A stretch of 64,000 nt of DNA, from sequence record PZ445524.1; one strand, 5' to 3'. Origin of the DNA: a phage. The notes beneath the pieces are model-generated. The model was not told the DNA's origin. It searched no databases and saw only the letters and a program-made list of their open reading frames with translations. A program made the position numbers and the translations under genes. This document shows, in pieces, positions 37,556-48,068 of the stretch; within the stretch, counting starts at the first letter, position 1; each line of letters opens with the position of its first letter.

Positions 37556-38134
37556 TTAGGAATTACGGGCTGCATTAGCAACGGCATACGCGTACTGAAT
37601 ATTAGCGTCTTTAAACTTACCTTTAGAGGTATCTATTTCTGCCTTAAAGCCGCCTTTAGTCATAACATCGGCAAATTCTTTACGGAAAGCCATTGCATCA
37701 AGACCTTTCCATGATGATTTATGCTTAGCAAATTCAAGACCTGCGAAGTTAACAGCCTTAGCTAATTTATTATCAATAACCCATTTACCGGCTTTAGGCA
37801 CAAACTTCGGGCCTTTCTGTTTAGAGAACAGTTTTAAATTCCAGCGGCGAAGGTCTGCATCAGCTTTAACAAATTCTGAGTCTAAGTTACTAGCAACAAC
37901 ATCTTCAATATGAGCAAATTTAAGTCCGTCAACTTCAATATTTAAATCGGTACGCCAGCGAAGTCCTTCCCATGCGAAGGCTTTAAAGTCGGAAGCCTTT
38001 GTAGCTAAGTACCGTTCAATAGGAGCTGTTTTAGGGTCAAAGCCGTTTCCCGATCGGTAGGTCCACTCATCTTTGTTAATGCCTTTGGCCTTTACTACAG
38101 AAGCTTCGGCAATAAATTCTTGATATGTTTTCAT
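37556..38134 (-). CDS. ipIII: Internal protein III
   Basis: 192 aa beginning with the capsid-targeting leader MKTYQEFIAEA. Confidence 0.8.
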   Translation of the reverse strand: MKTYQEFIAEASVVKAKGINKDEWTYRSGNGFDPKTAPIERYLATKASDFKAFAWEGLRWRTDLNIEVDGLKFAHIEDVVASNLDSEFVKADADLRRWNLKLFSKQKGPKFVPKAGKWVIDNKLAKAVNFAGLEFAKHKSSWKGLDAMAFRKEFADVMTKGGFKAEIDTSKGKFKDANIQYAYAVANAARNS

Positions 38135-38150
38135 GCGTTTCCTTTAATTT

Positions 38151-38468
38151 TTATTCTTTAGGGAAGTTTTTAGAATATGCATCATAAAGCTTATTTCCAA
38201 TACGGCGGAAAACTCTAGCCGCAAAACGATTTTCTGGGTTTTTAATCATGATTTGCATCATATAAGTACCCGCGTCAGAAAGAGCTTCTTCATAGTACCC
38301 GTTAATTTCTTTAAGAGTCCTACGTTTACCACCAGGACCATCAACAGTGATTTTCCATTTACCTGTAGAAGTGCGACTTGGCGGCTCAACTTGTTCAATC
38401 CAAATATAACCGCCTTCTACACGTTGTCCTGCAGCAGATTCTGCAATAAATTCTTGATATGTTTTCAT
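38151..38468 (-). CDS. ipII: Internal protein II
   Basis: 105 aa beginning MKTYQEFIAES. Confidence 0.75.
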   Translation of the reverse strand: MKTYQEFIAESAAGQRVEGGYIWIEQVEPPSRTSTGKWKITVDGPGGKRRTLKEINGYYEEALSDAGTYMMQIMIKNPENRFAARVFRRIGNKLYDAYSKNFPKE

Positions 38469-42254: not shown

Positions 42255-42818
42255 TTATTTACCTAGTTTAGCTATTATAGCTTCGGCAGCAGCTTTTAGC
42301 TTAGATGCAGTGTTAATACGATTTTTAATTTCAGTATAAGCATCGCCAAGAACATCAAGGCTATCAGAATAAACACTTACACTATTGCGTTCGCTATTTG
42401 AAATAGAACCTTTAGTTTTACGATCAAAATCGGTATACACGTCTTGAAGATCGCGGGCTGCCTTCTTTGCATCATCCAATGCATCAAGAGCTTTATTCAA
42501 AGCATTAACATATTTTTTAGTGTCAAACATATTCTTAGAAATTTTGACAGGTGCGCGTTCAGGAGTAGCTAAGGCAGATTTAGGAACCTGTTTACCAGAT
42601 GCCAGTTTCTTAGAAATTTTGAAAAATGCTTTATTGAAATTATTTTCTTGACTCATCGTAAAAGAACTATTATCGATGTTATACATTTCAATAGCTTTAG
42701 CTTTCCACTTAAGAAAATCGCCCCGGTCTTTTGGGTCCAAGTGGAAGAATACTTTAGTAAGATCTGCTTCAGATGGTAATTTTGCTGCTTCGGTTAAAAA
42801 TTCTGCATAGGTTTTCAT
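42255..42818 (-). CDS. Internal-protein-like protein with capsid-targeting leader (187 aa)
   Basis: N-terminus MKTYAEFLTEAAK follows the MKT(Y/F)xEF(I/L)xE leader pattern of T4 internal proteins. Confidence 0.55.
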   Translation of the reverse strand: MKTYAEFLTEAAKLPSEADLTKVFFHLDPKDRGDFLKWKAKAIEMYNIDNSSFTMSQENNFNKAFFKISKKLASGKQVPKSALATPERAPVKISKNMFDTKKYVNALNKALDALDDAKKAARDLQDVYTDFDRKTKGSISNSERNSVSVYSDSLDVLGDAYTEIKNRINTASKLKAAAEAIIAKLGK

Positions 42819-42897
42819 TTAAAATCCTTGAAATAATTTATTGGTTATTAATTATTTATTATTGTAACAGCATTCTCCGAGTGATTCAAACTAAAAA

Positions 42898-42919
42898 GCC
42901 CCAACCTTTCGGTCGGGGC
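42898..42919 (-). terminator. Intrinsic terminator closing the tRNA/stable-RNA operon
   Basis: mRNA GCCCCGACC-GAAA-GGUUGGGGC then UUUUU. Confidence 0.55.
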
Positions 42920-45385: not shown

Positions 45386-45571
45386 CTATTCACCTTTAGA
45401 AATTTTATCCATAACAATAGCGATTAAACCAATTAAAAATGCTACTACAAGTGAAAACACATTTTCTGATGTAGTTAATAATCCGCATATAAATCCAACA
45501 AACATTGAAAAACTAAAAGCGGAAGCAGAAATTGCAATAGCAACATTTCGAATTAATTCACAACGTTTCAT
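45386..45571 (-). CDS. Small two-helix membrane protein (61 aa)
   Basis: ATG at 45569-45571 with GAGGAG SD (MKRCELIRNVAIAISASAFSF...); two hydrophobic segments. Confidence 0.45.
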   Translation of the reverse strand: MKRCELIRNVAIAISASAFSFSMFVGFICGLLTTSENVFSLVVAFLIGLIAIVMDKISKGE

Positions 45572-45632
45572 TTTATTCTCCTCAGTAGTTGATAGGGTAA
45601 TAATATCACTATTAAAACCCAATGTAAACAAT

Positions 45633-45857
45633 TTATTCAACACCAGCGGCTTTCAAAAGTTTTTTAAGATTGGCAACACCTTGAGCAGAAAATGTGACCT
45701 TGCCACCTTTTTCACTGATAGAACCAACCAATTTAGCAAGTTTATCATTAGGAATTTTTTTAAAATCAGCCAATGTTCCATCAAAGGTTTTTGAAACAAA
45801 AGGCAGTTCGTCTTCATGTCTTTTAGCTTCTGCAATAAATTCTTGATATGTTTTCAT
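45633..45857 (-). CDS. ipI: Internal protein I-like (capsid-targeted, 74 aa)
   Basis: Starts MKTYQEFIAEAKRH (ATG 45855-45857); in the T4 ipI position upstream of 57B. Body not verified against T4 IPI. Confidence 0.6.
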   Translation of the reverse strand: MKTYQEFIAEAKRHEDELPFVSKTFDGTLADFKKIPNDKLAKLVGSISEKGGKVTFSAQGVANLKKLLKAAGVE

Positions 45858-45892
45858 TTTAGTTTCCATTTGGATGTTTTGTTTTGATAGGG

Positions 45893-45926
45893 TAATAATA
45901 TCACCACCCTATCTAAAAGTAAACAG
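45893..45926 (-). promoter_or_regulatory. T4-type early promoter of the ipI-like gene
   Basis: Minus strand GTTTAC, about 18 nt, TGATATTAT within the conserved ttttgatagggtaata element. Confidence 0.45.
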
Positions 45927-45934
45927 TTTATAAA

Positions 45935-46243
45935 CTATTTTATTCCGCGTGATGCAATTGTGTTCTGTCGTTTAACACCAGTTTGTTTAAAGTCATGATT
46001 GTCGATTTGATCGGTACGAGCAACTCCGAATGATGATTTGATTTTAGCTTTAGATCCTTTAGTTATAGAAATAAACATCTCGGAAGCCCCTTTCTTAAAG
46101 TCCGAGGCGATTACTTCAACGCCGTTCTTAGCAAGTGACTTCAGAATTGCCTCTGCATACTCATCGTCAAGACTCGTCTGAGTATTAATAACGAATGTCT
46201 TTGGCGCAGCCGCTTCATTGATAAATTCTTTAAATGTTTTCAT
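45935..46243 (-). CDS. Internal-protein-like protein with capsid-targeting leader (102 aa)
   Basis: Starts MKTFKEFINEAAA; basic body. Confidence 0.55.
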   Translation of the reverse strand: MKTFKEFINEAAAPKTFVINTQTSLDDEYAEAILKSLAKNGVEVIASDFKKGASEMFISITKGSKAKIKSSFGVARTDQIDNHDFKQTGVKRQNTIASRGIK

Positions 46244-46271
46244 TTTATTTTCCTAATTAATTTTGATAGGG

Positions 46272-46305
46272 TAATAGTATCACTACTAAAACCACATGTA
46301 AACAA
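46272..46305 (-). promoter_or_regulatory. T4-type early promoter (IP cassette)
   Basis: Minus strand GTTTAC, 18 nt, TGATACTAT; the 5' leader is nearly identical to that of the next gene. Confidence 0.45.
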
Positions 46306-46315
46306 CTTTGTGAAA

Positions 46316-46573
46316 TTATTTTAAATCTTCTAATCGTTTCTTCATCTTAGAACCGTTCTTAGCGATTTCGCCTGCATCAGAGCATAATGCTAAAAGCGCT
46401 TTAACTTTAGTTTGGTCTCCTTTAAAAGATGAAGGATCCACAGCAGCAGCAAGTTCTTTAATACGAGAGAAAAGACGCTCAGCTTCAGCTAAAGCCATTC
46501 CAAGCTTTACTTCCATACCGTGGGAAGATTCAGTGATAGTAGTTTTTGTAGCAAACTCTTTGAAAGTTTTCAT
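46316..46573 (-). CDS. Internal-protein-like protein with capsid-targeting leader (85 aa)
   Basis: Starts MKTFKEFATKTTITE. Confidence 0.55.
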   Translation of the reverse strand: MKTFKEFATKTTITESSHGMEVKLGMALAEAERLFSRIKELAAAVDPSSFKGDQTKVKALLALCSDAGEIAKNGSKMKKRLEDLK

Positions 46574-46601
46574 TTTATTTTCCTAATTAATTTTGATGAG
46601 G

Positions 46602-46635
46602 TAATAGTATCACTACCTCATCAGTATGTAAACAA
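46602..46635 (-). promoter_or_regulatory. T4-type early promoter (IP cassette)
   Basis: Same element as 46272-46305 with a few substitutions. Confidence 0.45.
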
Positions 46636-46645
46636 CTTTGTGAAA

Positions 46646-47342
<697 letters not shown>

Positions 47343-47343
<1 letters not shown>

Positions 47344-48068
47344 TATAGTACCTTTAGTGTATTTTTAATTTTAGAAAAAAGTTCTTCAAGAGAACCATCG
47401 TTTGTAATTACTAAATCGCCATCACGAATTGGCAATCCAGCTTCTGTAATATGTGTATCATTGGATTTTTGACCAGGACGAACTACATGAATTACTGTAG
47501 CACCCATCGCCCTAGCCGCATCCATTTCATGATCTTGACGGGTATCAGGAACGATATAATAATCATAACCTGAGTTAAATTTATCAAGATAATCTAAAGC
47601 AAATAATTTTACCCAGTACATGCGGTCGAAGTTATTAACAATCAAATCCGTACCTAGGGCTTGCATCAGACGACGGACTGACCATTGATCTTCAATATTA
47701 TTTATAACGTCAATAATCTTGTTAAATGCTACGGAATTAACTGATTCTTGTCCTTCGTCATCAAAAACAAACACACCTTTAATTGGGCTTTTACCATTAA
47801 GATAGCAAAATGCTTGTTCCATAATCGTGATTACTTCTGATTTAGTCAGATTTAAATTAGTCTCACGATCATAGTCAATTCCTTCAAACTCTTTACGAGT
47901 TAAGCAAGGATAGTCAGTGTTTGCTGCAAATACTCCCCATGCATAAGCCAATGCATCCTTAATAGGACCAGCAAGTTGGTATTTAACTGCAGAATAATTG
48001 CTCATGATAAAATCAGCAGTAGTATCTTTTCCACTACGCTTTACACCGCTTAAAAAGATTAGTTTCAT
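47343..48068 (-). CDS. 1: Deoxynucleoside monophosphate kinase (gp1)
   Basis: ATG at 48066-48068 with GAGGAG SD gives 241 aa; P-loop GVKRSGKDT. Confidence 0.93.

Follow-up and report, generated by a model that had tools for sequence, protein, structure and literature searches.

A Probable ip5-ip7-ip8 Internal-Protein Cassette Array at the ipI Locus of a T-Even Phage

The Genes Between 57B and tRNA.4

Sequence record PZ445524.1 is a stretch of phage DNA of 64,000 nucleotides, referred to here in its entirety as the window. The subject of this report is a compact array of small minus-strand genes in the window whose products begin with the leader typical of T4 internal proteins (IPs). From 45386 to 47343 the order of transcription on the minus strand is 57A, 57B, ip5, ip7, ip8, and tRNA.4. 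The three ip genes occupy positions 46316-46573 (ip5), 45935-46243 (ip7), and 45633-45857 (ip8), exactly where an earlier note, made from the sequence without database searches, had placed three consecutive open reading frames (ORFs). They encode internal head proteins of 85, 102, and 74 amino acids that are, respectively, 100% identical to Ip5 of RB15 and RB32, 99% identical to Ip7 of T2 and RB15, and 97% identical to Ip8 of RB15 (CAA84465.1). Among the PHROGs families, Ip5 matches phrog_3499 'internal head protein' (E 1e-49), Ip7 matches phrog_2667 (E 5e-41), a family separate from those of Ip5 and Ip8, and Ip8 matches phrog_8765 'internal virion protein' (E 2e-26). All three are labeled there as internal head or internal virion proteins.

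The slot that these genes fill is well-known from other T-even phages. The title of GenBank entry Z35082.1, from 1994, reads 'Bacteriophage RB15 DNA for Ip5, Ip9, Ip7, Ip8', and the annotation of RB32 places Ip5, Ip9, and Ip7 between 57B and tRNA.4, with the remarks 'replaces ipI' and 'flanked by 43 bp direct repeat'. T2 is annotated with ip5 and ip7 in the same slot, and T4 carries ipI at this position, again between 57B and tRNA.4. The flanking genes of the window array are those of T4, T2, RB32, and RB15. The Ip5, Ip7, Ip8, and Ip9 genes reported from RB15, T2, T6, RB70, K3, and RB32 are the same genes, with 97-100% amino acid identity (Repoila, Tetart, Bouet, and Krisch, EMBO J 1994), and the arrays of RB15, T2, and RB32 share the locus as well as the promoter and leader junctions, differing from the window only in the combination of cassettes. 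The source phage is a Tequatrovirus, its best 20-kb match in the collection of phage records having 93% coverage and 95% identity. Among 50,697 phage records searched by megablast, 807 showed a match to the locus, nearly all being T4-like phages of enterobacteria. It is very probable (roughly 85%) that the array is the hyperplastic ipI locus of a T-even phage, holding ip5, ip7, and ip8 cassettes between the anchor genes 57B and tRNA.4. Judged from sequence, Ip5, Ip7, and Ip8 are IPs by leader, by predicted cleavage motif, by position in a variable locus, and by identity to a named IP family. The genes, the locus, and the shared promoter and leader have already been described (Repoila et al., 1994), and only the cassette combination is particular to the window.

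For ip8 the mechanical ORF runs to an in-frame ATG at 45869, the alternative start being at 45857. The latter is favored because the RB15 annotation supports it and a GGA stands 8 nt ahead of its ATG. Initiation at the upstream in-frame ATG (45858-45869, 12 nt before the ip8 start) would give METKMKTYQEF, burying the leader. The annotated Ip8 start of phage G4498 reads ATGGAA, giving METYQKF (Lys2 to Glu).

Of the flanking genes, 57A (47101-47343, minus strand) is the first of the transcribed series. The upstream anchor, 57B (46646-47101, minus strand), is syntenic with 57B of T4, T2, and RB32 and matches the Pfam family Acb1 (PF23474, E 2.6e-60). The match to Acb1, an anti-CBASS nuclease, spans the full length of the protein, and thus a proven anti-defense gene adjoins the cassette array. 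The gene nevertheless bears the name 'RNA ligase' in RefSeq records and 'distal tail protein' in one GenBank record. The downstream anchor, tRNA.4 (45386-45571, minus strand; phrog_1692), encodes a hydrophobic protein of 61 amino acids that is 98% identical to tRNA.4 of RB32 and T2 and is without the capsid-targeting sequence (CTS) leader.

The Capsid-Targeting Leader

The N-terminus of Ip5 is MKTFKEFATKTTITE, with a cut predicted after ITE15 and before S16. Ip7 begins MKTFKEFINE and Ip8 begins MKTYQEFIAE, with cuts predicted after INE10 and IAE10, respectively, and before A11 in both. The heptapeptide MKT(Y/F)(Q/K)EF, which the earlier note had recognized as shared by the three genes, is indeed present in all of them and is far from a chance occurrence. 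In a six-frame translation of the window the strict pattern MKT[YF][QK]EF has five occurrences where 1.7e-4 would be expected, and none of 200 shuffles produced it. These five copies comprise ip5, ip7, ip8, and two at a second IP locus (described below), with none in the window outside the two IP loci.

Mutagenesis of IPIII has assigned residues 4 and 7 to targeting and residues 8 and 10 to processing, and the first 10 residues of this protein are enough to package foreign proteins (PMC9026906). The propeptides of IPs span 10-19 residues, and cleavage by the prohead protease gp21 follows an L/I-x-E motif (PMC9026906). The leaders of Ip5, Ip7, and Ip8 keep the aromatic residue 4 and Phe 7, together with an (L/I)-x-E motif ending a propeptide of 10-15 residues. 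From this motif, leader cleavage is predicted for all three proteins. The IPI leader of T4, MKTFKEF...ITE followed by the cut, is of the same kind as that of Ip5, and the mature proteins are of similar size. The T4 IPI structure 2JUB begins at residue 20, directly after ITE19. By its sequence the Ip5 leader is of this long IPI type and not of the 10-residue type of IPII and IPIII, whose CTS, MKTYQEFIAE, is identical to the leader of Ip8. Over the first seven codons ip5 and ip7 show three synonymous and no non-synonymous differences, which points to a constraint on the leader at the protein level, beyond that on the DNA.

Promoters, Stem-Loops, and a Direct Repeat

Promoter-like sites of the form TTTAC(A/T)-17 nt-TA(C/T)TAT, with TG before the -10 element, stand ahead of ip5, ip7, ip8, and tRNA.4. 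The earlier note had given each of the three ip genes its own early promoter, and a putative T4-early-type site does precede each one, all on the minus strand. Those before ip5 (46604-46632) and ip7 (46274-46302) consist of TTTACA, 17 nt, and TACTAT, and that before ip8 (45895-45923) of TTTACT, 17 nt, and TATTAT, all three being TG-extended. The fourth module (45600-45628, minus strand), before tRNA.4, marks the downstream boundary of the array. Within the 64 kb the pattern GTTTAC-N14-GTGATAYTATTA is matched exactly only at these four junction sites. With up to three mismatches it is matched 11 times against 0.27 expected, the extra matches being other early-type promoters. The assignment of promoter activity at ip5, ip7, and ip8 is accordingly a prediction from these matches. 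The module is not specific to IPs, as it is also found ahead of the leaderless tRNA.4. Since tRNA.4 has an ip-type promoter without a leader, the promoter, the Shine-Dalgarno (SD) region, and the leader are separable sub-modules. The right half of the tRNA.4 promoter is 100% identical to the ip7>tRNA.4 junctions of T2 and RB32. The SD region of tRNA.4 (ACTACTGAGGAGAATAAAATG) is the one found before ip9 in RB15 and RB32.

Two of the promoters are overlapped by stable stem-loops on the minus strand. A 13-bp stem-loop lies around the -10 element of the ip5 promoter (46594-46623), with a folding energy of -18.7 kcal/mol, a z of -4.0, and none of 200 shuffles as stable. A 12-bp stem-loop lies around the -10 element of the ip8 promoter (45886-45913; -21.7 kcal/mol, z -3.7). 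The equivalents at ip7 and tRNA.4 are degenerate (z -0.5 and -0.3) and no better than shuffles.

The earlier note had also described about 95 bp upstream of ip5 and ip7 as nearly identical. This stretch corresponds to a 109-nt direct repeat (46223-46331 and 46553-46661) of 88% identity, broken by a divergent patch of about 10 nt. Both copies are junction modules, read here on the minus strand. That at 46553-46661, the 57B>ip5 junction, comprises the end of 57B (DLK-stop), the promoter, the SD region, and the first seven codons of ip5, and is near-identical to the T4 57B>ipI junction as far as the SD region. That at 46223-46331, the ip5>ip7 junction, comprises in the same way the end of ip5 (DLK-stop), the promoter, the SD region, and the first seven codons of ip7. 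The repeat covers 13 coding nucleotides and the stop codon of ip5 (46316-46331) and of 57B (46646-46661), and because it extends into both genes, Ip5 and 57B both end in Asp-Leu-Lys-stop. A past duplication of the junction apparently rewrote the C-terminus of one of the two proteins, either Ip5 or 57B.

Shuffling of Cassettes by Recombination

The order of cassettes was compared in nine phages: T4, T2, RB32, RB15, G4498, ZCEC14, T4_ev240, KIT06, and the phage of the window. Nine different orders were found between the same two anchor genes. T4 carries ipI alone; T2 carries ip5-ip7, RB32 ip5-ip9-ip7, RB15 ip5-ip9-ip7-ip8, G4498 ip9-ip7-ip8, ZCEC14 ip7-ip8, T4_ev240 ip5-ipI-ip8, and KIT06 ipI-ip9-ip7 with a truncated ip8. 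The order in the window, ip5-ip7-ip8, is absent from all eight comparison phages, and no phage record in the collection covers more than 80% of the locus.

Twenty-one junctions were aligned and their halves scored on each side of the 12-nt promoter core that they have in common, GTGATACTATTA. Each junction pairs a left half that tracks the gene before it with a right half that tracks the gene after it. The left half of the window ip5>ip7 junction is 91% identical to the RB15 ip5>ip9 junction but only 44% identical to ip9>ip7, whereas its right half is 94% identical to RB15 ip9>ip7 and 78% identical to ip5>ip9. Likewise, the 57B>ip7 junction of ZCEC14 joins a 57B left half (99%) to an ip7 right half (95%), and the ip7>tRNA.4 junction of T2 joins an ip7 left half (86%) to a tRNA.4 right half (100%). 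Chimeras of this kind, crossing in the promoter core, are what homologous recombination between copies of a junction should yield, and they indicate that cassettes are gained, lost, and re-ordered by this route.

According to Arbiol et al. (2010), who cite more than 30 IP variants, 'PeSL-like' promoter/stem-loop elements had already been seen by Repoila et al. (1994) at the two variable IP loci, and were suggested to drive IP shuffling. In the PeSL cassettes of RB49/phi1-type phages, a promoter and stem-loop flank small accessory ORFs and provide the homology for shuffling (Arbiol et al., 2010; Comeau et al., 2014). In the window the stem-loops overlap the -10 element, the crossovers fall in the promoter core, and a stable hairpin is present at two of the four junctions. 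The T-even IP elements are analogues and not homologues of PeSLs, being T4-early-type rather than sigma70-like, with AT-rich, variable stems (Arbiol et al., 2010). By analogy only, the locus also recalls integron cassette arrays, in which small, unrelated, exchangeable adaptive genes lie between fixed boundaries and content varies among close relatives. Unlike integrons, the IP array has no integrase or attC sites and exchanges its genes by general homologous recombination at repeated promoter and leader stretches, and each of its cassettes has its own promoter and protein delivery tag.

The Payload Bodies

Behind the leaders lie three small, basic, lysine-rich proteins, with 10-12 Lys in 64-92 residues. 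Predicted mature Ip5 has 70 amino acids (7.5 kDa, pI 9.2), Ip7 has 92 (9.9 kDa, pI 9.65), and Ip8 has 64 (6.8 kDa, pI 9.6). The bodies have no detectable sequence homology to one another, in agreement with the earlier note, which had called them unrelated. BLASTP among the three mature bodies gave a best E of 1.6. The hhalign probability for the Ip7 and Ip8 bodies was 0.25%, and with the leaders included the alignment covered residues 1-13 only. When the comparison was widened to seven bodies (Ip5, Ip7, Ip8, T4 IPI, IpIII, an Ip10-like protein, and a 187-amino-acid ORF product, the last two described below), no E fell below 0.2. Against IPI and IpIII, the two inhibitors compared, the bodies of Ip5, Ip7, and Ip8 gave E values of at least 1.4, with no detectable homology; the body of T4 IPI* is without sequence similarity to any of the three. 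The earlier note had proposed searching the mature bodies against T-even IPs and structure databases; comparison with annotated T-even loci supplied their names, and the structure searches gave nothing informative.

The families are also very narrow, numbering 14, 16, and 5 clusters among 5.8 billion proteins, the 5 being those of Ip5. An exhaustive HMMER search with the Ip7 body against 1.84 billion representatives returned three clusters, all of them Ip7. The matches in two full-length clusters begin at residue 11, just past the 10-residue leader, and no leaderless relatives were therefore found in that set. An AlphaFold2 model of Ip7 (pLDDT 69, from a 12-sequence alignment) has a beta-alpha-beta-beta-alpha core and a C-terminal tail with pLDDT below 50, and Ip8 was modeled with pLDDT 79 from a 14-sequence alignment. 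In both models the leader helix is followed by strand-helix-strand-strand-helix. The Ip7 model resembles generic ferredoxin-like ACT/RRM domains with a TM of about 0.5, which is uninformative as to function.

The Leader at Other Loci and in Uncultured Phages

The second IP locus of the window lies at 37556-38468 on the minus strand, with strict-motif copies at 37556-38134 and 38151-38468. It holds IpIII (192 amino acids, phrog_5341) and, at the ipII position, a protein of 105 amino acids whose leader MKTYQEFIAE is followed by S. This protein is about 71% identical to Ip10 of SP18 and VR25. It falls in phrog_3966 'unknown function', and its usual annotation is hypothetical protein.

A further ORF of 187 amino acids (42255-42818, minus strand) starts with MKTYAEFLTEAAKL, which is CTS-like in having Tyr4, Phe7, and Leu8-x-Glu10 before Ala. 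It is located between e.8 and the tRNA cluster, away from the two classical IP loci. Close upstream of it, at about 42893-42918, is a strong hairpin bearing a T-run. The ORF corresponds to RB14ncORF136c and is present in 165 phage records, with the label 'hypothetical protein' in 40 of the 40 records listed. Its family is phrog_2280 (function unknown), and no Pfam match rises above threshold. Its product may be an unrecognized packaged or injected protein.

IMG/VR, scanned for exact matches to the leader DNA ATGAAAACNTWYMAAGARTTT, yielded at least 120 loci (L010-L129), with at least 107 distinct complete ORFs that start with MKT(F/Y)(Q/K)EF and have very diverse bodies. Among the matches listed, 48 of 107 ORFs have [LIMV]-x-E at residues 8-10, and 32 of 120 loci carry homologues of the T4 core genes present in the window (gp43, gp44, gp45, gp46, gp47, gp55, gp3, gp4, and gp6), which were assigned by ORF size and T4 gene order and not by a family scan. 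Locus L010 is syntenic with the region of the window from 57B to gene 5. At least seven leader-bearing ORFs match the S-AdoMet_lyase family (PF23780, E <= 0.001), and in a re-scan five of five ORFs exceeded the gathering score, the highest reaching 59 bits where the cutoff is 28. S-adenosylmethionine lyases are a known class of anti-restriction enzymes. At least one leader-bearing ORF encodes an ART-PolyVal ADP-ribosyltransferase (85 bits). Example loci are L025:1640-2170, L121:6568-7077, L129:11575-12084, L078:5183-5959, and L010:5090-5323. An RNase H-like 5'-3' exonuclease begins with this heptapeptide as well, as does a protein with an N-terminus that appears HAD-like by eye. Because it occurs on proteins that are unlikely to be packaged, the heptapeptide alone is no proof of capsid targeting in distant phages. 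A literature search for a CTS in cyanophages found nothing relevant.

Proposed Delivery and Function

Several lines of work on T4 suggest what these cassettes may do. The IPs of T-even phages have been described as diverse defense proteins having only the CTS in common (Rao and Black, 2010; PMC3012670). Each of T4 Ip1, Ip2, and Ip3 inhibits a GmrSD type IV restriction enzyme of its own, GmrSD-ECOR21 in the case of Ip2 and GmrSD-ECOR17 in that of Ip3 (Silas et al., 2025; PMC12373910). The product of T4 ipI, which as mature IPI* (2JUB) is an injected inhibitor of GmrS/GmrD, is encoded in the same slot as the window array and behind the same upstream junction module. Ip2 and Ip3 are encoded at the second IP locus, and their bodies are unrelated to those of Ip5, Ip7, and Ip8 as judged with IpIII; the concept of one injected inhibitor per nuclease variant is the same.

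A cassette in the window is one small ORF, the first 10-15 codons of which encode the CTS, and each junction supplies a predicted T4-early-type promoter, often overlapped by a stem-loop, and an SD region. By extension from the biology of T4 IPI, IPII, and IPIII, the leader would dock the protein on the scaffolding core of the prohead, and gp21 would trim it after INE10 in Ip7, IAE10 in Ip8, and ITE15 in Ip5. As with the T4 proteins, the resulting basic proteins of 7-10 kDa would be kept in the head with the DNA and injected along with it. More speculatively, the injected protein may stoichiometrically block one variant of a host nuclease that attacks DNA containing glucosylated hydroxymethylcytosine, or some other early-acting defense. 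A conserved leader module with swappable payloads as candidate injected effectors, as put forward in the earlier note, matches the standard published view of the locus.

It is proposed here, tentatively and at somewhat less than even odds, that at least one of Ip5, Ip7, and Ip8 inhibits a host defense not yet linked to IPs and, more broadly, that the leader is a delivery tag for enzymes across the T4 superfamily. The target might be a GmrSD subtype that the panel of Silas et al. did not include, or another defense that acts early. The leader-bearing ORFs of the IMG/VR scan, with their lyase and ADP-ribosyltransferase bodies, are a hint in favor, tempered by the unlikely-packaged proteins that start in the same way. 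A number of results weigh against the overall reading of the array given above. Scanned with Pfam, NCBIfam, and PADLOC, none of the three proteins reached threshold with any family, defense and anti-defense families included. Sequence searches of the PDB with Ip5, Ip7, and Ip8 (E <= 10) gave nothing but noise, 2JUB not being among the matches, and Foldseek searches of the PDB with the Ip7 and Ip8 models found nothing at E <= 1e-3. Literature searches found no virion proteomics showing Ip5, Ip7, or Ip8 to be present or cleaved. With ip4-10 against a GmrSD panel (some variants), no reproducible target was found, and the apparent effects of ip7 on CLS_011 and of ip8 on CLS_018-019 failed to reproduce (Silas et al., 2025; PMC12373910). 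The test of each payload against restriction that the earlier note had suggested has therefore been done in part. That note had also said that its reading would fall if the two extra genes were known IP alleles with a described function; all three are indeed named alleles, but none comes with a described function. Finally, the late-promoter motif TATAAATA is not adjacent to ip5, ip7, or ip8, its nearest copy on the minus strand lying at 47699-47706, inside gene 1 and upstream of 57A. As only early-type promoters adjoin the genes, the supply of their products for prohead assembly is unexplained by the sequence. Late supply of Ip5, Ip7, and Ip8 would need read-through transcription or stable early mRNA. 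Sub-threshold matches to DUF4479, Mur_ligase_M, DUF7890, and Csn2 in the Pfam, NCBIfam, and PADLOC scans were dismissed as chance.

The payloads may instead be packaged for mainly structural or physico-chemical reasons, such as neutralization of DNA charge, aid to packaging or ejection, or head assembly. The basic, lysine-rich character of mature Ip5, Ip7, and Ip8 (pI 9.2-9.7, 10-12 Lys) would suit such a role, as would the contacts of IP lysines with DNA phosphates seen by nuclear magnetic resonance (PMC3012670), the slower head assembly of IPIII mutants (PMC9026906), and the negative outcome of the GmrSD panel for ip4-10 (PMC12373910). Yet all three T4 IPs, the basic ones included, proved to be specific GmrSD inhibitors (PMC12373910), and the T4 IP genes are dispensable on laboratory hosts (PMC9026906). 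A structural role also leaves unexplained both the narrowness of the families and the frequent exchange of unrelated bodies among close relatives, with nine phages giving nine orders. It is considered unlikely.

Quite improbable is a common origin of the bodies as highly diverged paralogues of one ancestral IP with a common small alpha/beta fold, the array having grown by duplication and divergence and not by capture. The 109-nt repeat shows that a junction duplication has occurred, and Ip5 and 57B have their last codons in common. The element order shared by the Ip7 and Ip8 models after the leader helix might hint, weakly, at kinship. However, these models are of moderate confidence and cover only Ip7 and Ip8, beta-alpha-beta-beta-alpha is among the commonest of small folds, and Foldseek gave generic ACT/RRM-like matches (TM about 0.5), with IPI* (2JUB) not among the matches listed for either model. 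The profile-profile probability of 0.25% for Ip7 and Ip8 and the body-against-body BLASTP E values, all at or above 0.2, argue likewise against paralogy.

Least credible is that the leader of the three proteins is no working capsid-targeting signal and hitch-hikes in a mobile promoter, ribosome-binding, and initiation module, conserved for efficient translation initiation and recombination homology on proteins that act as ordinary early proteins after infection, for although early-type promoters without an adjoining late motif, and the occurrence of the heptapeptide on unlikely-packaged proteins of uncultured T4-like phages (up to four such ORFs within 4 kb), would fit such a module, the strict motif is confined in the window to the two IP loci, the ip5/ip7 leader substitutions are all synonymous, residues 4, 7, 8, and 10 and the L/I-x-E motif are kept in every leader, tRNA.4 uses the promoter and SD region without a leader, which is hence not obligatory in the expression module, and the first 10 residues of IPIII do package foreign proteins (PMC9026906).

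Significance for T-Even Phages

As a discovery the array is minor. Publications from 1994 onward already cover the locus and its gene names, the shared leader and promoter, and the notion of injected defense proteins as exchangeable payloads, all restated in recent reviews and in the 2025 paper. The assignment of the crossover to a 12-nt promoter core is of practical use for the engineering of cassette swaps. The gap that surrounds Ip5, Ip7, and Ip8 is of wider interest: these proteins are widespread in Tequatrovirus and form very narrow families, whereas all three T4 IPs are specific inhibitors of restriction enzymes. Where T4-like phages are used in therapy, Ip5, Ip7, and Ip8 may reasonably be considered candidate determinants of host range.

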